Source of the DNA: a virus
Virus record (IMG/VR): IMGVR_UViG_3300045988_138376
Strand: one strand, 5' to 3'
DNA: 64,000 bases
Made by a program: the position numbers and the translations under genes
The notes under the pieces: model-generated
The model's database searches: none
What the model saw: only the letters and a program-made list of their open reading frames with translations
What the model was told of the DNA's origin: nothing
In this document: piece after piece, positions 2,817 through 64,000 of the stretch
How the letters are laid out: each line of letters starts with the position of its first letter
Position numbering within the stretch: position 1 is the stretch's first letter

Positions 2817-3578
2817 TTAATTGCGACTCAACAACTTATTAACAAAGAACACTTGTCCAGCACCAGTCACTTTTGGAGTTTTATTTATGGTAATATGTCC
2901 ATCACTGTGAGTTATAGCTGTTTCCTTAATCTCAAATAATTTCATCTCCATGCTTTTTTGAGTTGGCATATTAAAATCAGATCCTTTTCTTTTTATTAGA
3001 TAACCATTATCTCTTAACCAAGAAAACATCCTATTTTGTCCCATTTCTACTCCATTCTGCTTGATAATTTTAGCCAAATCTCCAATTAGGATAGAAGTTT
3101 TGGAAGTAGTCACCGCTTCACTGAACAGAACTTTAGGTTTATCAACCTCAATCTTAGCCTCAGCCTCAATCCTTTTCTTTTTTTCCTCTTTCAGATTTTG
3201 CAACAGACCAATCATAAAGTCTGGATTAGAGATAGCCTGTTCCAACACATTGTCTGTCATATATGCACCATGCTTGCGGATCGAAGGTAATACTTCGTTG
3301 CATACCCAATCTTGAAACTTTTCTGCATTAGGAAGCTTAGATTTCATTGTTAATCTATATACTTCCCCTTCTTTCCCGTACTTTATAGGTTGCACACCAC
3401 TTTGAGTAGGGGTTTCCAAAACGGTAACCCCCTTACAATGGTCTATAACAGCCTTTGCCGGATTTGAATAACCGAGAGATTTCGCCACATCAGCCAAACA
3501 AAATAAAGGCTCACCGTCAACGACTGATACTCTTACCTTTCCGAACTCTAAATTTTCAAATACTTTAATTTCTGACAT
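2817..3578 (-). CDS. phage antirepressor, Bro-N N-terminal domain plus KilAC-type C-terminal domain
   Basis: The N-terminus FENLEFGKVRVSVVDGEPLFCLADVAKSLGY is Bro-N-like. The C-terminal half is paralogous to those of 11891..12610 and 40462..41184. Confidence 0.75.
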   Translation of the reverse strand: MSEIKVFENLEFGKVRVSVVDGEPLFCLADVAKSLGYSNPAKAVIDHCKGVTVLETPTQSGVQPIKYGKEGEVYRLTMKSKLPNAEKFQDWVCNEVLPSIRKHGAYMTDNVLEQAISNPDFMIGLLQNLKEEKKKRIEAEAKIEVDKPKVLFSEAVTTSKTSILIGDLAKIIKQNGVEMGQNRMFSWLRDNGYLIKRKGSDFNMPTQKSMEMKLFEIKETAITHSDGHITINKTPKVTGAGQVFFVNKLLSRN

Positions 3579-15974: not shown

Positions 15975-15990
15975 CGTTTTGATTATGATG

Positions 15991-15998
15991 CAAAGATA
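15991..15998 (-). promoter_or_regulatory. -7 promoter box TATCTTTG (minus strand) for the leftward operon
   Basis: caaagata on the plus strand, 17 nt upstream of the ATG at 15974. Confidence 0.55.
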
Positions 15999-16057
15999 AA
16001 ACCAATTTAGTAATTCGCAATACGCAATTTAGTATTTAACTCTAATTTAACACATAC

Positions 16058-16100
16058 ACAAAAAAAAGAAGCGGACATCAGAAATAAATCCAATGTCCGC
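16058..16100 (-). terminator. rho-independent terminator (minus strand)
   Basis: Stem GCGGACAT/ATGTCCGC (16071-16078 with 16093-16100) is followed on the minus strand by TTCTTTTTTTT. Confidence 0.7.
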
Positions 16101-16318
16101 CCGCATATATTGAAAGAAAAGTGATGAAGAATCTAACAACGCCACAAAGGTAAGAACTAATTTCCAAATACGCAATATAAAGCCCAAATTTTAACGATCT
16201 CTCACAAACATAAGGGAACTATCACATGTACATAGAAAATGGCTAAAACACGAGAATATTAGCCTTATTTAAAGGGTAAACGATAAACTCACTGGACGAA
16301 GATGGAGGAAACGGCTAA
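16058..16318 (-). ncRNA. candidate ~260-nt non-coding transcript (promoter TAAATTTG at 16324-16331 to terminator at 16058-16100)
   Basis: No ORF longer than 7 codons lies between the promoter box and the terminator. There is an internal GGCTAA/TTAGCC hairpin. The -33 element is absent, so promoter strength is uncertain. Confidence 0.35.
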
Positions 16319-16330
16319 ATCGGCAAATTT

Positions 16331-16371
16331 AAAAAGAAAAAAAGAGGATAACGCGAAAAACGAAATCCTCT
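16331..16371 (-). terminator. rho-independent terminator (minus strand)
   Basis: Stem AGAGGAT/ATCCTCT (16344-16350 with 16365-16371) is followed on the minus strand by TTTTTTTCTTTTT. Confidence 0.65.
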
Positions 16372-16428
16372 ACTCTTTTAAAGTGCAGTAGCCCCATTCA
16401 AGACGAAACAGTGCACTATGGATAAACA
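16331..16428 (-). ncRNA. candidate ~95-nt small RNA (promoter to terminator unit)
   Basis: A -33 TTTG (16460-16463) and a -7 TATATTTG (16434-16441) are spaced 18 nt apart. They are followed by hairpin AGTGCA/TGCACT (16382-16417) and the terminator hairpin. No ORF is present. Confidence 0.45.
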
Positions 16429-16433
16429 CAATG

Positions 16434-16463
16434 CAAATATAGACAGAAATTGGGAAATACAAA
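16434..16463 (-). promoter_or_regulatory. Bacteroidetes-type promoter (-33 TTTG, -7 TATATTTG), minus strand
   Basis: Both elements are read directly from the sequence, with an 18-nt spacer. Confidence 0.55.
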
Positions 16464-17095
16464 ATAAATGAAGAGAAAATAAAAGAATAGAATACATAAA
16501 AAATATGAATAACATATTGATTTTCAGAAAAATAAAAAAAATAAAAGTAAAAAAATTTCGAGAAAGAGTAGACTGAGCCCAATATCCGAAAGCGGGGGAG
16601 GGGGAGTCCCGACGGGATATCCAGCAACAAAAGGAGGTCAAACATCGACGAGTACGCTAATACATTGGCAAAATAGAGACTTTTATACTAAAATGGTATA
16701 TCTGTATACATTGGTGTGAAATATCGCCTAATTTGGCCTTAAAACGCGTCTTATTCGTTCGTTTAGTGTTTTGGGAGTTAAAATATAAAGCTTGAAGCAC
16801 GTAGAAAAGCAATATTTACGCTTTTTGAGGCGCTTTTTCATCATTTGGAGGGTGTTCTTGCGAGAAAGGGCGCGAGCCCGCCTAAACTATACCCGCTCCG
16901 CTCTTTTTTCTTTGTCTCTTTCTTTTCCTTCATTCTCCATCCTGGTACTTTCTTCATTTGCATTTTCTTTTTGCCTTATTTTCATTCTTTCCATTTCTCT
17001 TTCTGTTATTCTTTTGATTGTATCTTTATTGCTTTCTTCTTCTCCCTCTTTTATTCTTTCTCTAAAGTTCCATTTATTTTTTCTATGATAATAAT
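16440..17095. other. mirrored strand-composition tracts: ~120-bp purine-rich (plus strand) tract and ~200-bp pyrimidine-rich tract flanking a core with short GC-rich hairpins
   Basis: 16440-16560 is almost all A/G on the plus strand and 16890-17095 is almost all T/C. GC-rich islands lie at 16585-16620 and 16861-16900. The ORF-track hits here are low-complexity and start at non-ATG codons. Confidence 0.6.
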
Positions 17096-17149
17096 GCTCG
17101 TCATAGATTTATTCTATTGACTCTTTGTTACCGCTTGGTAACATTGTGT

Positions 17150-17275
17150 ATTGTCTATATTATATATATATTAATATTAATATTATATCGTGTTATATAT
17201 AAATATCCAAGTAATATATATACTTCACTACGTTACGTAATATATTACATTGTATATTCATATAAACACTATAGT
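17150..17275. other. TA-dinucleotide-rich block (candidate DNA unwinding element)
   Basis: The sequence tatattatatatatattaatattaatattatat...taatatatata...tacgttacgtaatatattacattgtatattcatataa is preceded by the perfect hairpin GTTACC-GCTT-GGTAAC at 17127-17142. Confidence 0.4.
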
Positions 17276-17399
17276 GTAAAATCTTCGATTTTGTTGGTAT
17301 TTACAGTTAACAAACCTTTAATATGTTCTTTTGTTGTTAATAGGTGTTATCTATCTGTCTTTTTACGTGTTGTTGTTTGGCTATTCCGAATATAACACC

Positions 17400-17407
17400 T
17401 ATATTTG
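17400..17407 (+). promoter_or_regulatory. -7 promoter box TATATTTG for the rightward arm
   Basis: Perfect TAnnTTTG. It is followed by a ~380-nt leader containing hairpin AACCTGTAA-GACTGG-TTACAGGTT before the first gene at 17796. Confidence 0.5.
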
Positions 17408-17795
17408 TATCAGAAACAAAGAGATAAAGATTCTCTTAAAGTTCTAAAGTAGTTCTTTCATTTACTTCCATACTGACAAACCTGTAAGACTGGTTACAGG
17501 TTCTATTTACTACCATTCAAATAAGCAACATTCATAAGCGTTATGTTATAATGTTATCATCGTATTTTTTCTTTTATTCTTCGATGTATAAAGAAGTATT
17601 TAGGCGTTATGTGTGTAGATATACTTGTTATATCTATGTGCTTGACTTTTTTTCGTTTCCTTTACGCTGTTTGGGTGGTGTTTCTGAATAAAAGAGAAGG
17701 TTGAGGAATAAAGGTAGTACTCAACCGCTTTAATGTAGTCTTCATACATTAGGAGCAATAAATATTAAATATAAACCCTTTAAGCATATAGAGTT

Positions 17796-18941: not shown

Positions 18942-19907
18942 ATGGAAAAGAAATTTGAACTAACAGAAAAGTATGTAGTAAACGAGTTTGGAACAAAGTT
19001 GTACCAAATCAAATGTACGAAGACGTTCGAGTATGCAAAAGAAGGAGAACTTGGAGGATATATCGAAAAAGAAGAAAACTTAAGTCAAGAAGGTAATGCG
19101 TGGGTGTCCGACACTGCGCGGGTATCCGACGATGCGCGGGTGTACGGCAATGCGCAGGTATTCGGCGATGCGAATGTATCCGGCAATGCGCGGGTATTCG
19201 GCACTGCATGGGTGTACGGCGATGCGTGGGTGTTCGGCAATGCATGGGTGTACGACAATGCGCGGGTATCCGACACTGCGCGGGTATCCGACGATGCGCG
19301 GGTATCCGGCGATGCGTGGGTATCCGGCAATGCGCGGGTATCCGACGATGCGCAGGTGTTCGGCAATGCGCAGGTATTCGACACTGCGCGAGTGTTCGGC
19401 AATGCGAATGTATCCGGCACTGCGCGAGTGTCCGACACTGCGCGGGTATCCGACGATGCGTGGGTGTTCGGCACTGCGCGGGTGTTAGGCAATGCGTGGG
19501 TATCCGACGATGCGCAGGTGTTCGGCTATGCGAATGTATCCGGCAATGCGCGAGTGTCCGACACTGCGCGGGTATCCGACGATGCGCGGGTGTACGGCAA
19601 TGCGCGGGTATCCGACGATGCGCGAGTGTTCGGCACTGCGCAGGTGTACGGCTATGCGCAGGTGTCCGACACTGCGCGGGTATCCGACGATGCGCAGGTG
19701 TTCGGCACTGCGCGAGTGTTCGACAATGCGCGGGTGTTAGGCACTGCGCGAGTGTTCGGCAATGCGTGGGTGTCCGACAATGCGTGGGTGTCCGACAATG
19801 CGCAGGTATCCGACGATGCGCGAGTATCCGGCACTGCGCGAGTGTTCGACACTGCGCGAGTGTTCGGCAATGCGCGGGTATCCGGCAATGCGTGGGTGTG
19901 CAAATAA
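18942..19907 (+). CDS. hexapeptide-repeat (predicted beta-helix) protein: 50-aa N-terminal domain plus 45 tandem [GD][NDT]A[RWQN]V[SFY] units
   Basis: 321-aa ORF. The period of 6 aa / 18 nt is read directly. The pattern (V at position i, small residue at i+4) resembles left-handed beta-helix hexapeptide repeats. Confidence 0.8.
   Translation: MEKKFELTEKYVVNEFGTKLYQIKCTKTFEYAKEGELGGYIEKEENLSQEGNAWVSDTARVSDDARVYGNAQVFGDANVSGNARVFGTAWVYGDAWVFGNAWVYDNARVSDTARVSDDARVSGDAWVSGNARVSDDAQVFGNAQVFDTARVFGNANVSGTARVSDTARVSDDAWVFGTARVLGNAWVSDDAQVFGYANVSGNARVSDTARVSDDARVYGNARVSDDARVFGTAQVYGYAQVSDTARVSDDAQVFGTARVFDNARVLGTARVFGNAWVSDNAWVSDNAQVSDDARVSGTARVFDTARVFGNARVSGNAWVCK
19092..19901. repeat. 45 x 18-bp tandem array (consensus about GGCAATGCGCGGGTATCC), GC-rich island
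   Basis: 810 bp equals 45 units with no interruption. The array is stop-free in several frames on both strands, which generates the overlapping artefact ORFs in the track. Confidence 0.95.
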
Positions 19908-19945
19908 TAAGGTCAAGTTGTAATAACTGTATAAACAATAAATCC

Positions 19946-20689
19946 ATGAAAGCAATATATTTAAGGTGCTCAACCGATAAACAAGATTTTGCACAACAAT
20001 TTGAATGTATAAGACAATATTTGAAGCGGATAAATGAATCATGTGATTTATACACTGTACAGGAAAAAATATCCGGTACAGTCAAGCACACAAAAAGAAA
20101 GTTGCATGAGTTATTAGAATCATGTGATAAAGGTTCTGTTATTTATGTCTCAGAATTATCTCGTTTGGGTAGAAGTATGTCGGATCTCTTTCAAATTGTT
20201 GGTTATGCCGGAGAAAAAGATATAACATTGATTCAATGCAAAGACGGTACTGTCATAGAAAACAAATCTATAGGCGGAAAAGCCTTATTATTTGCCTTAT
20301 CTTTAGCGGCTGAAATCGAGGTTGAGAACATAAGACAAAGAACAAAAGCCGGGCTTGCTGCAAAAAAAGCAAGAAACGAAGCAATAGGCGGAACGGATGA
20401 TCTTTGGGGGAAAAACACAGGAGCAGACAGGGAAACGTCCCTAAATGAAATAAGAAACGAATCTGCGAACAAAAGAAAAGAGAATGCAAAAGCAAATGCA
20501 AATAACGCGTTCTTTTGGACTTTTATAAATCAATGGATAAAAGATAAAGGAGAGCCTAAAAACTGCGAAGAATGGCAGGATATAGCGCAAAAACTCAATG
20601 CTTTGGGGCAAAAGACAGCTACAGGAATGCAGTATAATAACATTCGCGCGGCTGCAATGTATCGTAAATTAAAAAAATTAATGAAATGA
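19946..20689 (+). CDS. small serine recombinase (resolvase/invertase family)
   Basis: The true start is the ATG at 19946 (MKAIYLRCSTDKQ, containing the catalytic Ser motif). Other motifs are VSELSRLGRS and EIEVENIRQRTKAGL. The product is 247 aa (248 codons including the stop) with a helical C-terminus. The track ORF 19100..20689 is extended artefactually through the repeat. Confidence 0.85.
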   Translation: MKAIYLRCSTDKQDFAQQFECIRQYLKRINESCDLYTVQEKISGTVKHTKRKLHELLESCDKGSVIYVSELSRLGRSMSDLFQIVGYAGEKDITLIQCKDGTVIENKSIGGKALLFALSLAAEIEVENIRQRTKAGLAAKKARNEAIGGTDDLWGKNTGADRETSLNEIRNESANKRKENAKANANNAFFWTFINQWIKDKGEPKNCEEWQDIAQKLNALGQKTATGMQYNNIRAAAMYRKLKKLMK

Positions 20690-32739: not shown

Positions 32740-32747
32740 TATATTTG
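32740..32747 (+). promoter_or_regulatory. -7 promoter box TATATTTG
   Basis: Perfect TAnnTTTG, 5 nt upstream of the leader closing helix. Confidence 0.55.
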
Positions 32748-32857
32748 CAACCGAAAGGGATAGTTGAGGGTCATGGCTCAATGATAAGGCTAAGCTAACA
32801 GGCTTCCCCTTTCTCTTTTAATCGTCAGAATTACCTCAACCGTTAGTCCTATAACGG
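32748..32857 (+). ncRNA. structured 5' leader RNA, family copy 1 (upstream of recT)
   Basis: The closing helix is GAAAGGG/CCCCTTTC (32753-32813) and the hairpin is GTTGAG/CTCAAT. GATAAG joiner and CTTCCC are conserved. The internal CTAAC(A)GG is complementary to CCGTTAG at 32840-32846, which can alternatively pair with TAACGG at 32852-32857. Confidence 0.55.
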
Positions 32858-32879: not shown

Positions 32880-33740
32880 ATGGCAGAAACAAAAAATCAA
32901 ATGATTTCCAAAGCTGATATTGGGAATCAAGTAATCACAAGAATAGATGACCTTTGCAAAGTAGGGTTCACTATGCCAGCAGATTACAATTATGTAAATG
33001 CAATTAAAGGCGCAATGCTTTTATTGAATGACGTAAAAAACAAAGATCGAGTTCCCGCTTTATCTTGTTGCACTCCCAATAGTATATCTACAGCGTTATT
33101 CAAAATGGCGACGCTCGGATTGGATGTAACGAAGAAGCAGGCATATCTAATTGTAAGAGGAGACCAACTTTGCCTTGAAGAAAGTTATTTCGGTACTTGT
33201 TTACAAGCAAGAAGAGTCTCTAAAAATTACGAACCAATCGCAAATGTTATCTACAAAGGAGATACTTTTAAATTTGAAGTTAATCCAGAGACAGGAAGAA
33301 AGCGCATTGTAGAGCATACTCAGACATTAGAATCAATTGATTCCGGAGAAATGATTGGAGCTTATGCTATTGTAACAAATGACAAGGGAGAAACCGACGT
33401 TGAAATTATGTCTATGTCACAAATAAAGAAAAGTTGGGCAAAAAGTTCTTCTTCTCAACAGTTGGTGCATCGGGAATTTGGAGACCAAATGGCAAAAAGA
33501 ACTGTAATTAAAAGAGCCGCAAAAATGCTTATAAATTCTGCGCTTTCAGAAAATACTATTCCGGATGATGAACTCGAACCAAATAATGAACTCGATCCTA
33601 CAAAGCAAATTGCTCCTGATTATGCGGAATATGAAGAAGTCGAAGAAGCAACGCCAGTAGAAGCCGTACCCATACAAAAAGAGGAAGCTAAGAAAGAAGA
33701 AGCAGTTAAACAGCCCGCTTCGGAGCCAGAGCCTTTTTAG
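32880..33740 (+). CDS. recT: RecT-family single-strand annealing recombinase
   Basis: 286 aa. The core (LGLDVTKKQAYLIVRGDQL..ESYFG...IGAYAIVTNDKGE...MAKRTVIKRAAK) follows the RecT pattern. It has an acidic tail ending in EPEPF. Confidence 0.75.
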   Translation: MAETKNQMISKADIGNQVITRIDDLCKVGFTMPADYNYVNAIKGAMLLLNDVKNKDRVPALSCCTPNSISTALFKMATLGLDVTKKQAYLIVRGDQLCLEESYFGTCLQARRVSKNYEPIANVIYKGDTFKFEVNPETGRKRIVEHTQTLESIDSGEMIGAYAIVTNDKGETDVEIMSMSQIKKSWAKSSSSQQLVHREFGDQMAKRTVIKRAAKMLINSALSENTIPDDELEPNNELDPTKQIAPDYAEYEEVEEATPVEAVPIQKEEAKKEEAVKQPASEPEPF

Positions 33741-35671: not shown

Positions 35672-35887
35672 ATGGATACAATATTATTGGTTTATATTAT
35701 AGGAGTAATAATATCACTAAAAGCTTCTTGGGATATAATGAATTTTTCCAATGTTGAGTCCATTACTATTGGGGATATTCTATTATTTCTTTTCATGAGT
35801 TCTCTCTCTTGGCTTACTGTTACAATAGCCATATTTATTTGTTGGAGGGAAATACTCAATTACGAAATATGGAAAAGAAAGAGATAG
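35672..35887 (+). CDS. small two-TM membrane protein
   Basis: 71 aa with two hydrophobic helices. Confidence 0.55.
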   Translation: MDTILLVYIIGVIISLKASWDIMNFSNVESITIGDILLFLFMSSLSWLTVTIAIFICWREILNYEIWKRKR

Positions 35888-35935
35888 TTTATGGTTTGTT
35901 AACGAAAAACATTTCGTTATCTATTTATTAACTGC

Positions 35936-35943
35936 TAACTTTG
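35936..35943 (+). promoter_or_regulatory. -7 promoter box TAACTTTG
   Basis: Perfect TAnnTTTG, 22 nt upstream of the ATG at 35966. Confidence 0.5.
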
Positions 35944-35965
35944 CAGAAACAAAAAACAAATTATC

Positions 35966-36136
35966 ATGCTAATAGAAACAAAAGACTGGGTTGGCGTAAC
36001 CGAATACGCAAAAAGAAACAACCTATCAACCGTATGGGTGTATAAATTGATTAAAAGAGGAGATTTAAAAACGATGGAATTTGCGGATAAAACGCTAATT
36101 TTCATTGGAGATAAAAAACAAAGTGTTAATTTATAA
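35966..36136 (+). CDS. small helix-turn-helix protein, family member 4 of 4 (56 aa, below the ORF-track cutoff)
   Basis: My hand translation gives MLIETKDWVGVTEYAKRNNLSTVWVYKLIKRGDLKTMEFADKTLIFI.... This replaces the antisense track ORF 35935..36195. Confidence 0.55.
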   Translation: MLIETKDWVGVTEYAKRNNLSTVWVYKLIKRGDLKTMEFADKTLIFIGDKKQSVNL

Positions 36137-36148
36137 AATAAAATCATC

Positions 36149-36352
36149 ATGTGGTTAAGAATTGGAGATAAGGATTTTCCTAAAAGTAGTATCAAGGAAA
36201 TATACAGAATGGGTAAAACTATTCAGAGTGGAAAATGGTGCATCGGATACAGAGTTTACAATCAGTGGCGTTATGTTCACTATGACACCGAAGAGGATTA
36301 TAATAAAGTGATTGAGAATTTAACTAAAATATTGGAAATCGCGGAGGTGTAA
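36149..36352 (+). CDS. hypothetical small protein
   Basis: 67-aa ORF. Confidence 0.5.
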   Translation: MWLRIGDKDFPKSSIKEIYRMGKTIQSGKWCIGYRVYNQWRYVHYDTEEDYNKVIENLTKILEIAEV

Positions 36353-36433
36353 AACAGAATACCATGACTGATAAACTACAAACTCTTATTGAAAAATACA
36401 ATAATAATTACTATTTTATTTAAAAGATTTAAG

Positions 36434-36441
36434 TATCTTTG
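36434..36441 (+). promoter_or_regulatory. -7 promoter box TATCTTTG
   Basis: Perfect TAnnTTTG, abutting the leader closing helix. Confidence 0.55.
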
Positions 36442-36535
36442 TAAAGGGATAGGCAGGAGTTATAAACCTGCTGATAAGAGTAAACTCACGCTCTTCCCTT
36501 TATTCTCAAACGTGAGTAATATTAAATAAGTGAGT
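36442..36535 (+). ncRNA. structured 5' leader RNA, family copy 2 (upstream of AP2-domain gene)
   Basis: The closing helix is AAAGGGA/TCCCTTT (36443-36501) and the hairpin is GGCAGG/CCTGCT. GATAAG and CTTCCC are conserved. The internal ACTCAC (36484-36489) is complementary to GTGAGT at 36512-36517 and at 36530-36535, the latter abutting the ATG. Confidence 0.55.
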
Positions 36536-37972
36536 ATGAGTAAAAGAAAAACAACTGAACAATTTATTGAAGAGGCAAGAGCTATTCATGGTGATAAGTA
36601 TGATTATTCTAAAGTAGAATATGTAAATAGCAGGACTAAAGTGTGTATTATTTGCCCTATTCATGGAGAATTCTTTCAAGAGGCTAATGGCCATATTCAA
36701 GGTAAAAAATGTTATTTATGCGAACAGTTAAGAAAAAGAACTAAATTATGTGGTATAGGTGTAAATGATTTAGATCATCCATTGAGCAAAAAAGAAATGA
36801 AATCATATTACGTATGGGCATCAATGATTAGAAGATGTTATGATGAAAAAGAATTAAAAAAAAGACCGTCTTATACAGGTTGCTCCGTTTGTGATGAATG
36901 GAAATACTTTTCCAACTTTAAGAGATGGTTTGATGAAAATTATGTCGATGGTTATCAATTAGATAAAGATATTATTGTAAGTAAAAATAAGCTGTATAGT
37001 CCAAATACTTGCTGTTTTGTTCCGTTGGAAATAAATAATGTGATCAAGAGGGTTGGTTTTAGACGAGACAAATACATTGGAACAACTAAAAATTATAATA
37101 AATATGGAGCATCTATATCTAAATATGGGAAGAACATAAGTTTAGGATATTACGACAATATAGAAGATGCTTATTTGGTTTATAAAAAAGCAAAGGAAGA
37201 TTATTTGAAAGAATTAGCAAATAAGTATAAAGATAAAATTAATGCTATTACATATGATTCTTTAATTAATTATAGAGTTGATGATTTATATAATTTGGAT
37301 CAAGGCTGCGAAAGAGCGCATCCAGAGGAATTTAAAGAGCCAGAAAGGATTCCTATGACAAATGACCAAATATTGCTTATCGCTACATATATTGTTATTT
37401 ATGTCAACGAATTAGCCAATGTATGCGTCATGGACATTAAGCCATCTATTACCAATAAGGACAAGGAGACTCAAAAGATTTATTTTGCAGCGCTTAAACG
37501 AGTTAAGGAGTATCAAAGTCGGATGGCTAAGATCGCAGGTGATAATGCAATAGGTATCTATGCTTCTTACTGTGACGCTCTCGACCAAGAAGTATTACCT
37601 GTTATCGAGAAGTATCGAATGTCCATTGAGAAATATCTTTGTGAGATAGAAGGGGTTGAAAATCCCTATTTCCTATCAATGGTTGAATTAGCGCGAAGCA
37701 TAACAAGTTATTCGGTTATTGCAATCTCAAAAAGAATAGCTGAATGTTTGAAGTTTGATGAAAATGCAGTAGCTTTGCGAGGATATAAACAGTCCGAACT
37801 ATTGAAGATCTTGGAAGAATTATGCAAATGGTGCTTTAGAAAAGCTTCTGATATAAATTACAATGAAAGTGAAGAATGCGTAAATGCCTATAGGGAATTT
37901 GACGCGATACTCACAAATCCGGATATTATTTCAACATGTATTATTAACGCTAACGAATTAGAAAACAAATGA
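36536..37972 (+). CDS. AP2-domain DNA-binding protein (homing-endonuclease-associated architecture) with uncharacterised helical C-terminal half
   Basis: The start is set at the ATG at 36536; the track uses a GTG at 36530. There is an N-terminal Cys/His module (CIICPIHGEF...KKCYLC). The AP2-like segment is YIGTTKNYNKYGASISKYGKNISLGYYDNIEDAYLVYKKA. Confidence 0.6.
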   Translation: MSKRKTTEQFIEEARAIHGDKYDYSKVEYVNSRTKVCIICPIHGEFFQEANGHIQGKKCYLCEQLRKRTKLCGIGVNDLDHPLSKKEMKSYYVWASMIRRCYDEKELKKRPSYTGCSVCDEWKYFSNFKRWFDENYVDGYQLDKDIIVSKNKLYSPNTCCFVPLEINNVIKRVGFRRDKYIGTTKNYNKYGASISKYGKNISLGYYDNIEDAYLVYKKAKEDYLKELANKYKDKINAITYDSLINYRVDDLYNLDQGCERAHPEEFKEPERIPMTNDQILLIATYIVIYVNELANVCVMDIKPSITNKDKETQKIYFAALKRVKEYQSRMAKIAGDNAIGIYASYCDALDQEVLPVIEKYRMSIEKYLCEIEGVENPYFLSMVELARSITSYSVIAISKRIAECLKFDENAVALRGYKQSELLKILEELCKWCFRKASDINYNESEECVNAYREFDAILTNPDIISTCIINANELENK

Positions 37973-38550
37973 AAGTAAAAATTAAGAAAATACATAAAGA
38001 CGAATTGTGGGAATTTTATCCATTAGACAATAGATACCTTATATCAAATTACGGTAGAGTTTGGAGTACTATAAATAACAGGGAGCTTAAAAACAGTATA
38101 AATGGAGCAGGATATTTATGTTGTTTAGGAGAAAGTGTACATAGATTAGTGGCAGAAACATTTATCCCTAATGTGCATAATTATACAGAAGTAGACCATA
38201 TTGATACAAATAGAAAAAATAATTTTGTTGGTAATCTAAAGTGGTGTAATCATCCCGAAAATTGCAAGAACCCCATAAGTATAAATAAAAGAAAATTAAA
38301 AGATGGTTTCCGAGTAAACTTAGGTGTAAGTTTTTCAGATGAGCATAAAAAGAAAATATCAGAAGCGCAAATCGGGAACAGAGGTATTCCAGTAATACAA
38401 ATGTCATTAGATGGGGATTTTATTAAAGAGTATGTAAGCCTTAATCAAGCTGCGAAACAGAATAATATATCCAGGAGGAATATATCAAGATGTTGCAATG
38501 GAATTTACAGTCAGGCAAATGGTTATAAATGGATATATAAAAATAAATGA
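37969..38550 (+). CDS. HNH homing endonuclease (NUMOD4-like N-terminus, HNH_3 core, C-terminal HTH)
   Basis: The motifs are YLISNYGRVWS, VHRLVAETF...VDHIDTNRKNNFVGNLKWCNHPEN, and a C-terminal LNQAAKQNNISRRNISRCCNG. Confidence 0.8.
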   Translation: MKVKIKKIHKDELWEFYPLDNRYLISNYGRVWSTINNRELKNSINGAGYLCCLGESVHRLVAETFIPNVHNYTEVDHIDTNRKNNFVGNLKWCNHPENCKNPISINKRKLKDGFRVNLGVSFSDEHKKKISEAQIGNRGIPVIQMSLDGDFIKEYVSLNQAAKQNNISRRNISRCCNGIYSQANGYKWIYKNK

Positions 38551-40314: not shown

Positions 40315-40343
40315 AAAACCTTTGGTGTTTAGTTTTTAACTAC

Positions 40344-40351
40344 TATATTTG
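40344..40351 (+). promoter_or_regulatory. -7 promoter box TATATTTG
   Basis: Perfect TAnnTTTG, 30 nt after the endolysin stop. Confidence 0.5.
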
Positions 40352-40354
40352 CAG

Positions 40355-40449
40355 CGTCAACCACCACTGACACAAAAAAAGAAGAAATAGTTTTATCTAT
40401 ATATTAATCGGGATTTAGATGCGTGGTGGCTCTATTTCCCGATTTTTTT
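40355..40449 (+). ncRNA. candidate ~95-nt small RNA or attenuator (promoter directly followed by a terminator)
   Basis: CCACCAC (40361-40367) is complementary to GTGGTGG (40423-40429), which lies in the loop of the terminator hairpin AATCGGGA/TCCCGATT. No ORF is present. Confidence 0.4.
40406..40449 (+). terminator. rho-independent terminator
   Basis: An 8-bp stem AATCGGGA/TCCCGATT (40406-40413 with 40437-40444) runs into TTTTTTT. Confidence 0.65.
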
Positions 40450-40461
40450 ATAAAAAGCAAT

Positions 40462-41184
40462 ATGGGAGAATTAGTATTTAAAGGAGAATCGAATCAAGTT
40501 TTAACGAACAGTCTGTTAGTGGCTGAGAAGTTTGGGAAAGAACACAAAAGAGTAATGCAGGATATTAGAGAATTAAAATGTAGTAATAAATTTAAACAGC
40601 ACAATTTCGTGCTTTCCTCTTATAAGAGTGAACAGAATCGAGAATTGCCTATGTATGTGATGAATAAAGACGGATTTACTCTTTTAGTTATGGGGTATAC
40701 TGGTGAAACAGCTATGAAATTTAAGGAGGAATACATTAAGGCTTTCAATGAAATGGAGGAGATTATAAAAAATGGGAACTATTGTGTGCCTAAATCATTC
40801 CGTGAAGCTCTTTTACTTGCAGCCGAACAGCAGGCTCAGATTGAACAACAGCAAATGCGTATTGAAGAGATGAAACCAAAAGAAGAGTTTTTTGATCAAG
40901 TAACAGATAGTAAGGACGCATGTGATATGGCAACAGTAGCTAAAGTACTAAACATGGGAGTTGGTAGAAATAAACTATTTGAGATATTGCGGGATAAGAA
41001 AGTCCTCCAAGAGAGAAACGCACCATACCAGTCTTACATAGATAGAGGATGGTTTAGAGTCATAGAAAGCAAATACACCAAGCCCAATGGAGACATGTGT
41101 GTAAACTACAAAACCATAGTTTATCAAAAAGGCATAGATGGTATCAGAAAGCTATTATCAGAACTAAAGAATGCTGGGGAGTAA
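40462..41184 (+). CDS. Rha-family N-terminal domain plus KilAC-type (variant A) antirepressor
   Basis: The start is set at the ATG at 40462; the track uses a GTG inside the terminator loop. The N-terminus is LVAEKFGKEHKRVMQDIREL. The C-terminus is paralogous to that of 11891..12610. Confidence 0.75.
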   Translation: MGELVFKGESNQVLTNSLLVAEKFGKEHKRVMQDIRELKCSNKFKQHNFVLSSYKSEQNRELPMYVMNKDGFTLLVMGYTGETAMKFKEEYIKAFNEMEEIIKNGNYCVPKSFREALLLAAEQQAQIEQQQMRIEEMKPKEEFFDQVTDSKDACDMATVAKVLNMGVGRNKLFEILRDKKVLQERNAPYQSYIDRGWFRVIESKYTKPNGDMCVNYKTIVYQKGIDGIRKLLSELKNAGE

Positions 41185-43267: not shown

Positions 43268-43299
43268 TTTGTTGTTAAAAAAACAAATAAGTATCTTTG
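43268..43299 (+). promoter_or_regulatory. Bacteroidetes-type promoter (-33 TTTG 43268-43271; -7 TATCTTTG 43292-43299)
   Basis: Both elements are present with a 20-nt spacer. Confidence 0.6.
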
Positions 43300-43304
43300 C
43301 GATG

Positions 43305-43440
43305 TAACAAGAGTGGAAATCTTAGACACGTGTGAAGAAATTAATAGCCAAGTGTGGCTTTTATATAAAGCCTGTAAGCAATTGTTAATTTAGAATGTGT
43401 CTAAGATTTCCACTCAAAAGCTTACAGGCTTTCTTGTGTA
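43305..43440 (+). ncRNA. candidate structured RNA or DNA switch with two interleaved perfect inverted repeats
   Basis: There is a 19-bp IR GAGTGGAAATCTTAGACAC (43311-43329 with 43397-43415) and a 13-bp IR AAAGCCTGTAAGC (43367-43379 with 43420-43432), arranged A-B-A'-B'. Confidence 0.45.
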
Positions 43441-43824
43441 AAAAAACAAGATGATTGCACTAATCAGCCTTAAAATGGATGTTCATTATCTCCGTACATT
43501 GTGCATCGCCCTCCAAGGCGAAAAAAGGGATAACACTACAATCAGATGTTTTTTCATGTTGGGAAAGTGAAGGGCAACGTTGAACCTTGCGACCCTTCGA
43601 CCTCACGCCAAAAACAAAAACTAACATGAAAAGGCAAACGAAAAAAAGTAGATATAAGCAGAGGTGTTTATATGCGAGGGATACGGGAGTGCTGATTGTG
43701 TATGTAGGTTTTTGGAGTAAACCGAAAATATTCTTCTTACTGCTAACTGCTATATATATAATGTACAGTGTAGGTGTGAGGGATATAAAAGGTATACTAT
43801 ATATTAATTCTAAATTAACAACTA

Positions 43825-63282: not shown

Positions 63283-64000
63283 ATGGCAAAAGTAACTAAT
63301 TTTTCTGAATCTGCAAGCGATAGCCTGCAAATTCCAGCGTCAGCCAACGAAAAAGGCATTTTAACAAAAAGCAGTTCAAGCAGTGAAATCGAATTGTATT
63401 TCCGAAAAGTCTTAGAACTCAGCAAGTCCGATAACGAATTTCCCGTCAATCTCGAAGAGGTGTGGATGCTGGTATATCCAAGAAAAGATCACGCTGTTAG
63501 AGAATTGGTAGAAGGCAGTCAGTTTATGGAAGGTGTTGATTATCAAGTTTTCCTCAAAAATGGGGAAAACCCTAAAGGAGGAAGACCTACAAATGAGTAC
63601 AAGCTTACCGTTCCCTGCATGGAATTCTTCATTGCAAGAAAAGTCCGCCCAGTATTTGAAGTTTATCGCAAAGTGTTCCACAAAGTAGCAAACGCTTCTA
63701 CTTCTACATCCGATGTAGTTTTGTGGATTAATGCAGTTTCCGACTCTTTGAATCTGAACAAGCAGTCTAAACTCTTATTATTCAAGAAATGGGGAGATAG
63801 TAGAGATTTGCCAACTCCTGATTATGTAGATTCCGCGGATATTCTCTTATCAGCAACTGAGCTTTTAAAGCGCAATGGGCTTAATATCAGCGCAAGAGTA
63901 TTCAATGTGGCTATGATAGAAAAAGGCTTTTTGGAAAAGTGTACTCGCCCTTCAAGCAAAGGACAGAAAGTTTTCAATCACCTAACTACTAAAGGTCTTG
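63283..64000 (+). CDS. AntA/AntB-type antirepressor (3'-truncated by the window end)
   Basis: My hand translation from the ATG at 63283 stays open to the window end. The segment NLEEVWMLVYPRKDHAVRELVEGSQFMEGVDYQVFLKNGENPKGGRPTNEYKLTVPCMEFF is AntA-like. It is absent from the track because there is no stop codon in the window. Confidence 0.65.
   Translation, partial: MAKVTNFSESASDSLQIPASANEKGILTKSSSSSEIELYFRKVLELSKSDNEFPVNLEEVWMLVYPRKDHAVRELVEGSQFMEGVDYQVFLKNGENPKGGRPTNEYKLTVPCMEFFIARKVRPVFEVYRKVFHKVANASTSTSDVVLWINAVSDSLNLNKQSKLLLFKKWGDSRDLPTPDYVDSADILLSATELLKRNGLNISARVFNVAMIEKGFLEKCTRPSSKGQKVFNHLTTKGL

Follow-up and report, generated by a model that had tools for sequence, protein, structure and literature searches.

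The 64,000-nucleotide (nt) stretch of DNA analysed here, referred to as the window, is the IMG/VR virus record IMGVR_UViG_3300045988_138376, an A+T-rich, phage-like genome with 34.6% G+C. On its plus strand, at positions 36434-36538, a leader sequence runs from a putative promoter to the start codon of a gene (36536-37972, plus strand) encoding a homing-endonuclease-like protein of 478 amino acids, and it is this leader and its possible role in the control of the gene that concern us. The initial annotation of the window had described the downstream gene as encoding an AP2 domain. Pfam, however, finds no AP2 domain in the 478-residue protein, which PHROG places in the "HNH endonuclease" families phrog_953 and phrog_374 and which by BLAST matches genes annotated as HNH or GIY-YIG. 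A second endonuclease gene, with HNH_3 and NUMOD domains (37969-38550, plus strand), shares bases with the stop codon of the first, and the two are probably co-expressed.

All parts of the leader lie on the plus strand. The consensus of the -7 element of Bacteroidota promoters is TAnnTTTG, and TATCTTTG at 36434-36441 conforms to it; the role of promoter is assigned from this consensus, and transcription should start at, or just 5' of, the first helix. The first 61 nt that follow (36442-36502) are folded, on the basis of covariation and RNAalifold, as a three-way junction of helices P1, P2 and P3. The 5' strand of P1, UAAAGGGA (36442-36449), pairs with the 3' strand UCCCUUUA (36495-36502), and the closing helix reported in the initial annotation does therefore exist. 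Between these strands come the junction segment J1/2, which is the UAG of GGGAUAG (36450-36452); the P2 hairpin (36453-36471), with the stem GCAGG/CCUGC and a 9-nt loop, AGUUAUAAA, that contains the self-complementary hexamer UUAUAA (36460-36465, as AG-UUAUAA-A); the segment J2/3, which is the UGAU of UGAUAAG (36472-36475); and the P3 hairpin (36476-36495), with the stem AAGAG/CUCUU and a 10-nt loop, UAAACUCACG, in which the anti-initiation segment ACUCAC lies (36484-36489). The 3' strand of P1 follows that of P3 without a break.

Downstream of the junction a U/C-rich linker, UUCUCAAA (36503-36510), which is 9-18 nt long in homologues, leads from P1 to site 1, the putative decoy, CGUGAGU (36511-36517); an A/U-rich spacer, AAUAUUAAAUAA (36518-36529), then leads to site 2, GUGAGU (36530-36535). 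The ACTCAC of the loop and its two GTGAGT complements (36512-36517 and 36530-36535) are placed exactly as had been claimed, the second of them touching the ATG at 36536-36538. With site 1 the P3 loop can form a pseudoknot of 7 base pairs (bp), ACUCACG with CGUGAGU (-10.9 kcal/mol by RNAduplex), and with site 2 a helix of 6 bp (-8.8 kcal/mol). The hexamer GTGAGT occurs 14 times in the 64 kb when both strands are counted, and 3 of these 14 occurrences fall inside these 52 bases. Shuffles of the window gave an expected count of 0.00 for the three-part pattern of loop and two complements, and when the 43 nt downstream were shuffled, about 0.15% of the resulting sequences had at least two 6-nt complements of the window loop.

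The leader belongs to a large family of RNAs whose members occur in phages and prophages of Bacteroidota and Bacillota, from the gut and elsewhere. IMG/VR was scanned with the junction motifs and a covariance model was built from 14 relatives; together the pattern scans and the model gave 103 matches in 92 loci, some of them copies that the search patterns do not cover, and at least 63 distinct P2/P3 types were counted by descriptor scan after later scans. Matches in genomes include the chromosome of Segatella copri HDD04, Leyella stercorea, metagenome-assembled genomes of Prevotella and Bacteroides, and others labelled Ruminococcus, Erysipelotrichaceae, Oscillospiraceae and Clostridia. The 5' end of family members lies within a few bases of a promoter or of the 3' end of a tRNA, and in most Bacteroidota-type homologues a TAnnTTTG-type motif is found 3-8 nt upstream of P1. 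No Rfam 15 family reached its gathering score anywhere in the window; permissive Rfam scans of both copies of the element in the window (the second is described below) gave sub-threshold chance matches only, and the same database found tRNAs only in 12 diverse homologous loci. BLAST against cultured phages gave matches in coding parts only, none of them close. Exact, 3-mismatch and repeat searches of the window found no other copies; what copies have in common is only structure and junction bases.

The homologues provide strong support for the three-way junction. Compensatory changes are seen at 4-5 of the 5 pairs of the P2 stem and at 1-2 pairs of the P3 stem, where G-U is tolerated, and P1 appears as GGG/CCC, GAG/CUC, CGG/CCG, AGG/CCU or UGG/CCA; RNAalifold independently predicts the same three helices. 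The tolerance of G-U pairs in the stems supports an RNA on this strand. While the helices covary, the junction bases (A)UAG and UGAU, within GGGAUAG and UGAUAAG, are invariant or nearly so: the UAG of J1/2 is the same in all members found, including those recovered outside the search pattern by the model only, and the UGAU of J2/3 is near-invariant, with UGAC, CGAA and CGAU as rare variants. A U-rich tract follows P1 on its 3' side in many homologues (L115 and L203, for example), often beginning several bases past the stem; in the window a terminator scan of 35800-37000 scored no terminator-like site.

The sequence of the P3 loop varies between types, and both downstream sites vary along with it. 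Thus CUCAGUG is found with CACUGAG twice, ACCGAAG with CUUCGGU and UUCGGU, UGUCAAC with GUUGACA twice, and GCUGAAC with GUUCAGC and GUUCAGU, and in nearly every type site 1 lies 9-18 nt past P1 and site 2 near the start codon. Under strict criteria at least two complementary sites are present for 27 of 38 distinct loop types, compared to a mean of 2.3 and a maximum of 9 for shuffled loops; site 1 is present in 35 of the 38 types and site 2 in 27. The pairing of the loop with site 1 shows changes on both sides at 7 of 7 pairs, with 85.7% of cells paired in a MAFFT alignment that is not structure-fitted, and in joining a loop to a downstream strand with covariation it has the form of an H-type pseudoknot. 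Since sites 1 and 2 pair with the same loop bases, or with overlapping ones, only one of the two pairings can exist at a time.

The position of site 2 follows the translation start. In Bacteroidota-type members its end lies mostly 0-9 nt before the AUG or over the AUG itself, as in L058 (AUGGAACA) and L115 (UGAAUGAG), and overall mostly between -9 and +9 nt, with two types at 12 and 20. In members that use Shine-Dalgarno (SD) initiation, which are located inside tRNA arrays and often belong to TAG-recoded phages, CUCC is part of the loop, and the GGAG at site 2 is the SD sequence itself (L133, L233, L260, L288, L308, L320). Measured between their starts, sites 1 and 2 are mostly 15-22 nt apart in Bacteroidota-type members and 10-57 nt apart in SD-type ones. 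In L119 the pairing at site 2 is the longer one, at 9 bp versus 7 bp for site 1, and is made with a shifted part of the loop.

A homologue of the window endonuclease gene itself (beginning MPKKLTTEQF...) was found at locus L295, and it confirms the ATG at 36536 as the start of the 478-residue gene. According to the initial annotation, a lack of any complement at the initiation region of homologous leaders would speak against its reading. The leader at L295 has such a complement, 4 nt before the AUG; its loop, GCUAAC, differs from that of the window and yet both sites, UGUUAGC twice, match it, which is the opposite of the outcome named as adverse. At the level of sequence, then, the comparison of homologues establishes that the family exists, that selection acts on the three helices and on both long-range pairings, and that site 2 falls together with the initiation signal.

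Individual loci show further variation around the two sites. In L219 and L271 site 1 is an in-frame tandem duplicate of the start region and first codons (ATGGAACATCAATTCAAT, twice), and tandem duplication of the start region may be how decoys arise. At both L219 and L226 a truncated leader-like hairpin, GAGUGGGAUAGG...CCUUUCCCACU, lies about 10 nt upstream of the complete leader and may be the remnant of an older copy. L146 has kept the leader and site 1 but has no endonuclease gene; its homology with the gene-bearing L142 ends exactly before site 2 (around 3394-3485), which suggests that site 2 and the open reading frame (ORF) are a separable module. Two other ideas about this region were rejected: a short upstream ORF starting in site 1 (GUG here, UUG in L123), since many sites have no start codon, and a triple helix formed by the pyrimidine linker with the purine strands of P1 and P3, since on inspection the linker does not track helix sequence across homologues.

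These observations are consistent with a leader that acts in cis as a throttle or switch of translation, and we consider this reading moderately probable. Transcription from the promoter would yield an RNA whose 5'-terminal leader governs how the downstream gene, in most cases a homing endonuclease, is translated, with the P3 loop serving as an antisense sequence that has two equivalent targets on the same mRNA. Paired with site 1, the loop would form a compact pseudoknot that keeps the start region single-stranded and open to translation; paired with site 2, it would bury the bases beside the AUG, or the SD sequence in other hosts, and keep the ribosome off. Being mutually exclusive, the two pairings would allow the leader to set or switch the frequency of translation. 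Candidate inputs are dimerisation via P2, a ligand or protein bound at the invariant junction, and processing, as well as the position of the element at the extreme 5' end. The initial annotation had proposed competition between a decoy and the initiation region; the competing elements are borne out by the covariation of the loop with both sites in dozens of homologues and by the way in which site 2 tracks the AUG or SD sequence, while the assignment of the on and off states, and the toggling between them, is what we infer. That annotation had also held this to be more specific than a simple stabilising hairpin, and indeed a plain hairpin would leave the co-varying loop and sites unexplained.

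Several findings weigh against a switch of this kind. Site 1 is the nearer of the two and, in 19 of 30 types, the stronger pairing, and nothing was found that would displace the loop from it; the open state would therefore be the default, and the closed state would call for an input. At L121:1496, L203 and L281 site 2 is weak or imperfect, and in copies of the RecT type, including the first copy in the window, it lies 32 nt before the ATG. A comparison of G-U with A-C wobbles in the long-range helices, intended to tell the strand, mainly reflected composition and off-target matches. Furthermore, for 36442-36503 alone nearest-neighbour folding, in which the pseudoknot is not scored, favours an unbranched structure (-21.2 kcal/mol) over the junction (-16.0 kcal/mol). 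Such minimum-free-energy folding was a check proposed in the initial annotation; the unbranched alternative that it gives has no support among the homologues, and pseudoknots cannot be represented in the calculation.

One candidate input is indicated by the P2 loop. A Watson-Crick palindrome of at least 6 nt is present in 18 of the 27 distinct P2 loops, against a mean of 2.3 and a maximum of 9 in 5000 shuffles, and one of at least 4 nt in 26 of the 27. The hexamers differ (UAGCUA, UAAUUA, UUGCAA, UCAUGA, UGAUCA, AUUAAU and, in the window copy, UUAUAA) and their self-complementarity is kept; the common format is a 9-nt loop of two purines, the hexamer and an A. A 6-nt self-complementary sequence flanked by purines, which characterises loops of the dimerisation initiation site (DIS) type, is found in 18 of the 27 loops, that of the window included. 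Since the hexamer is unable to fold on itself in a 9-nt loop, the simplest reading is loop-loop pairing of two RNA molecules, and the P2 loop thus suggests dimerisation of the RNA, which natural variation that leaves the hexamers self-complementary supports indirectly. It is possible, though we put this forward only tentatively, that the leader is a sensor made of RNA alone, in which either P2 dimerisation would make translation dependent on leader concentration, two junctions clamping two sites, or a signal would be bound by the invariant junction.

In the first of these forms, leaders would kiss via their P2 loops and two P3 loops would occupy sites 1 and 2 of one mRNA; the partner could be a second mRNA or a short leader-only transcript, and translation would fall with rising transcript concentration. 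The excess of palindromes (18 of 27 loops with at least 6 nt, 2.3 expected), maintained while the hexamer itself varies, favours such an arrangement, as does the match between the layout of P2 and the HIV-1 DIS (PMC7357161). One loop and two sites per RNA would fit a 2:2 complex, the spacing of the sites is fairly constant in Bacteroidota-type members at 15-22 nt, and a leader without a downstream gene (L146) and the U-rich tract after P1 in many members also speak for it. Some hexamers, however, consist of A and U only, including the UUAUAA of the window, from which weak kissing would be expected, and in L181, L302, L308 and L320 the sites are only 3-4 nt apart, so that simultaneous binding by two bulky junctions is unlikely and a rigid clamp is weakened as a model. 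The spacing is also very variable in SD-type members (10-57 nt), no terminator is scored in the window copy, and different leaders of one genome sometimes have the same hexamer (L190, L298, L301). We regard this form as unlikely on the whole. Less likely still is the second form, a specific version of the switch in which a small molecule, or a conserved protein of host or phage, would bind to the invariant junction and lock the site-1 pseudoknot or free the loop for site 2. Eight junction bases that are invariant across phages of two phyla, while all helices vary, would be accounted for in this way, and riboswitches typically combine a junction with a loop-tail pseudoknot and alternative pairing over the ribosome-binding site (RBS); yet the controlled genes (endonucleases, RecT, antirepressor-like) have no metabolic theme, there is no match in Rfam, no candidate ligand emerged, and the junction bases could equally be a fixed tertiary motif.

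Two further explanations were considered. The junction and site-1 pseudoknot could be a static structure that protects the 5' end from RNases or insulates the initiation region, site 2 being non-regulatory and resembling site 1 only because site 1 arose as a duplication of the start region. The element does indeed always occupy the very start of the RNA, following a promoter or the 3' end of a tRNA, site 1 is more universal than site 2 (35 against 27 of 38 types), and site 1 repeats the first codons in tandem in L219 and L271. A remnant of duplication would nevertheless be expected to decay, whereas in many lineages the loop and both sites have changed together and site 2 has kept to the AUG or SD sequence; the site 2 of L119, which pairs through 9 bp with a shifted part of the loop where site 1 pairs through 7 bp, looks selected rather than inherited. 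The strongest argument against a purely static stabiliser is that complementarity at site 2 is kept across hosts with different initiation signals, and we consider such a stabiliser improbable. Alternatively, the repeats could act at the level of DNA, as protein operators, recombination sites or endonuclease targets, or the leader could be a transcription attenuator. One inverted and two direct repeats do stand beside a promoter, a U-rich tract follows P1, and the recombination junction of L146 falls exactly before site 2. These repeats differ between copies within one genome (CUAAC and CUCAC in the window), however, so that one protein could not read all of them; the stems tolerate G-U pairs, the positions of the sites track translation signals, and no terminator-like site was scored. 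We consider a role in DNA or in attenuation very improbable.

The cis-acting switch that we favour can be compared with several known systems. Translation of homing endonuclease genes in T4-like phages (I-TevI, I-TevII, I-TevIII, segB and Aeh1 mobE) is repressed by RNA structures in which the RBS is hidden (PMC2988022). By analogy this would be the nearest functional parallel, common to both being phage homing endonuclease genes held down at translation by RNA structure over the initiation region. In the T4-type systems, however, a simple local hairpin includes the RBS, whereas here the loop of a 5' three-way junction about 40 nt upstream would act via a pseudoknot; there an internal late promoter gives transcripts without the inhibitory strand, whereas here the promoter lies upstream of the whole leader, an extra decoy target is present and the sequences are unrelated. 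The leader does not have a local hairpin of the T4 type, and only the association with the genes is shared. The c4 RNA of phages P1 and P7 has two antisense loops (a' and b'), is processed from the transcript and acts in trans, with the targets a1/b1 upstream and a2/b2 at the RBS of icd. Regulation of ant by C4 has been described (PMC8201110). The likeness lies in an antisense element and its target on the same RNA, and in duplicated targets of which one is at the RBS of an operon that controls an antirepressor; some of the leaders described here precede Bro-N/KilAC or Rha-like genes. The Rfam C4 model has no match in the window, and the leader has a single antisense loop with both targets downstream in cis.

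Alternative long-range pairings that expose or hide the start codon occur in the 5' leader of HIV-1. The P2 loop resembles the HIV-1 DIS in being a 9-nt apical loop of purines, a 6-nt palindrome and an A (PMC7357161), but the HIV-1 element belongs to a retroviral genome and not to a phage mRNA, and the sequences are unrelated. In HIV-1, moreover, the palindromic loop is itself an alternative partner; no such pairing was found in the phage leader, whose dimerisation is putative. The leader resembles the SAM-II and preQ1-II/III riboswitches in its conserved junction, in the pseudoknot that joins a hairpin loop to the 3' tail, and in an alternative pairing over the RBS, and like riboswitches in general it has invariant unpaired core bases and mutually exclusive pairings at the initiation region. 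It differs from these classes in having no candidate ligand, no Rfam match and non-metabolic genes; in place of a single metabolic or transport theme, the genes encode RecT, Bro-N/KilAC and at least four families of endonuclease. No riboswitch class known to us has a duplicated identical target. Ribozyme and riboswitch cores (hammerhead, pistol, twister-sister and others) were considered and rejected, as the junction strands are on inspection unlike the hammerhead core and there is no Rfam match. In repZ of the IncI-alpha and IncB plasmids a stem-loop forms a pseudoknot with a site near the RBS and so activates translation, and a separate antisense RNA competes with it. Here too a hairpin loop would pair with a few bases beside the place where translation of a downstream gene begins, but the pseudoknot of repZ activates, whereas the competitor in the phage leader would be a decoy in cis and, since the pairing can cover the AUG itself, repression is expected.

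The genes that follow the leaders are mostly homing-endonuclease-like: HNH/NUMOD4, GIY-YIG (in part with NUMOD3), PD-(D/E)XK, AP2 with HNH_3, and the family of the 478-residue protein of the window. The GIY-YIG fold of one of these families is also that of the N-terminal domain of UvrC. Others are RecT, Bro-N/KilAC and Rha-like genes and a few unknowns. Since the same type of leader stands before unrelated proteins, autoregulation by the encoded protein is unlikely. At seven loci (L133, L288, L296, L298, L301, L320, L322) the leaders lie 5-10 nt past tRNA genes, inside tRNA arrays; the downstream endonuclease ORFs, of GIY-YIG and other types, have in-frame TAG codons there, and these phages therefore appear to recode TAG.

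The second family copy in the window (32740-32857, plus strand; 71.8 bits with the covariance model) lies upstream of RecT (ATG at 32880). It comprises the promoter TATATTTG (32740-32747), a three-way junction (32753-32814) with the P2 loop GGUCAUGG, a degenerate site 1, CGUCAG (32823-32828), and a site 2, CCGUUAGU (32840-32847), inside a hairpin 32 nt before the ATG. Its layout of promoter TATATTTG, GAAAGGGAUAG, hairpin, UGAUAAG, hairpin and CCCCUUUC is the same as that of the copy at 36434, and the first hairpins of the two copies are wholly different in sequence with pairing kept (GCAGG/CCUGC versus UUGAG/CUCAA). The model scores of the two are 74.8 bits for 36442-36503 and 71.8 bits for 32753-32814. 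In the relatives L048 and L196 the sites are perfect. In close relatives an HNH gene (L107) or a Rha-like gene (L117) lies between this leader and the recombination gene (RecT in L117); there site 2 is canonical and stands beside the ATG of the inserted gene, whereas the window, which has no insert, has a degenerate site 1 and a site 2 that is 32 nt away from the ATG of RecT. These insertions behind the leader suggest that inserted genes take over the leader.

A third copy in the window, for which the initial annotation had claimed the same duplicated-target layout, was not identified: the next match of the model, at 63790-63851, scores 17 bits and was rejected, being inside an antirepressor-like ORF and without the helices. 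The leader at 40340-40460 was likewise rejected as a family copy on account of its different architecture. It precedes a Rha/KilAC antirepressor gene (ATG at 40462), has the promoter TATATTTG, and contains a CCACCAC complementary to a GUGGUGG in the loop of a terminator-like hairpin (CGGGA...UCCCG, then U7).

Elsewhere in the window, the intergenic gap at 43290-43450 has a Bacteroidota-type promoter, TATCTTTG, followed by 20-nt inverted repeats (AGAGTGGAAATCTTAGACAC ... GTGTCTAAGATTTCCACTC) and a further hairpin (AAAGCCTGTAAGC ... GCTTACAGGCTTT) within and just past the second arm, and is a candidate structured non-coding RNA. At 19001-19900 an 18-nt unit is repeated head to tail in more than 38 copies, at and within the 5' part of an ORF of 493 amino acids (19208-20689); the unit encodes a hexapeptide-like repeat (..NARVxGxAxV..), and the product is probably a beta-helix protein. 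About 1.6 kb without a long ORF (15975-17600), A+T-rich and with TATATA runs, lies between divergent gene blocks and could be an origin or regulatory region.

The leader is a new RNA family, and the kind of system to which it belongs, a structured leader that occludes the initiation region, is already known. The family is large, is not in Rfam 15 and is tied to mobile nuclease genes of gut phages; unusual are the identical decoy and the self-complementary loop. We know of no natural RNA in which one antisense loop is combined with an identical decoy and a real target. The papers searched contain no description of the leader, which could be contained in two large catalogues of unnamed candidate RNAs (PMC10690425, PMC8040213), the latter with Prevotella candidates near "uvrC"-type genes. 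Few natural functional RNA dimers are known (PMC7357161), and a sensor made of RNA alone would, if true, represent a new class of regulatory RNA, bacterial or phage, that has the decoy built into its logic. Since the loop and sites change freely on a fixed scaffold, the leader is a candidate orthogonal part for translational control in gut Bacteroidota, and it is a useful marker of transcript 5' ends and of mobile nuclease cassettes in viromes. Homing endonuclease genes are widespread in phage genomes and their control is understood mainly in T4-like phages; the leader, which spans phages of Bacteroidota, largely without SD initiation, and of Bacillota, would be a portable control module of at least four unrelated nuclease families and of some antirepressor-like and recombination genes.

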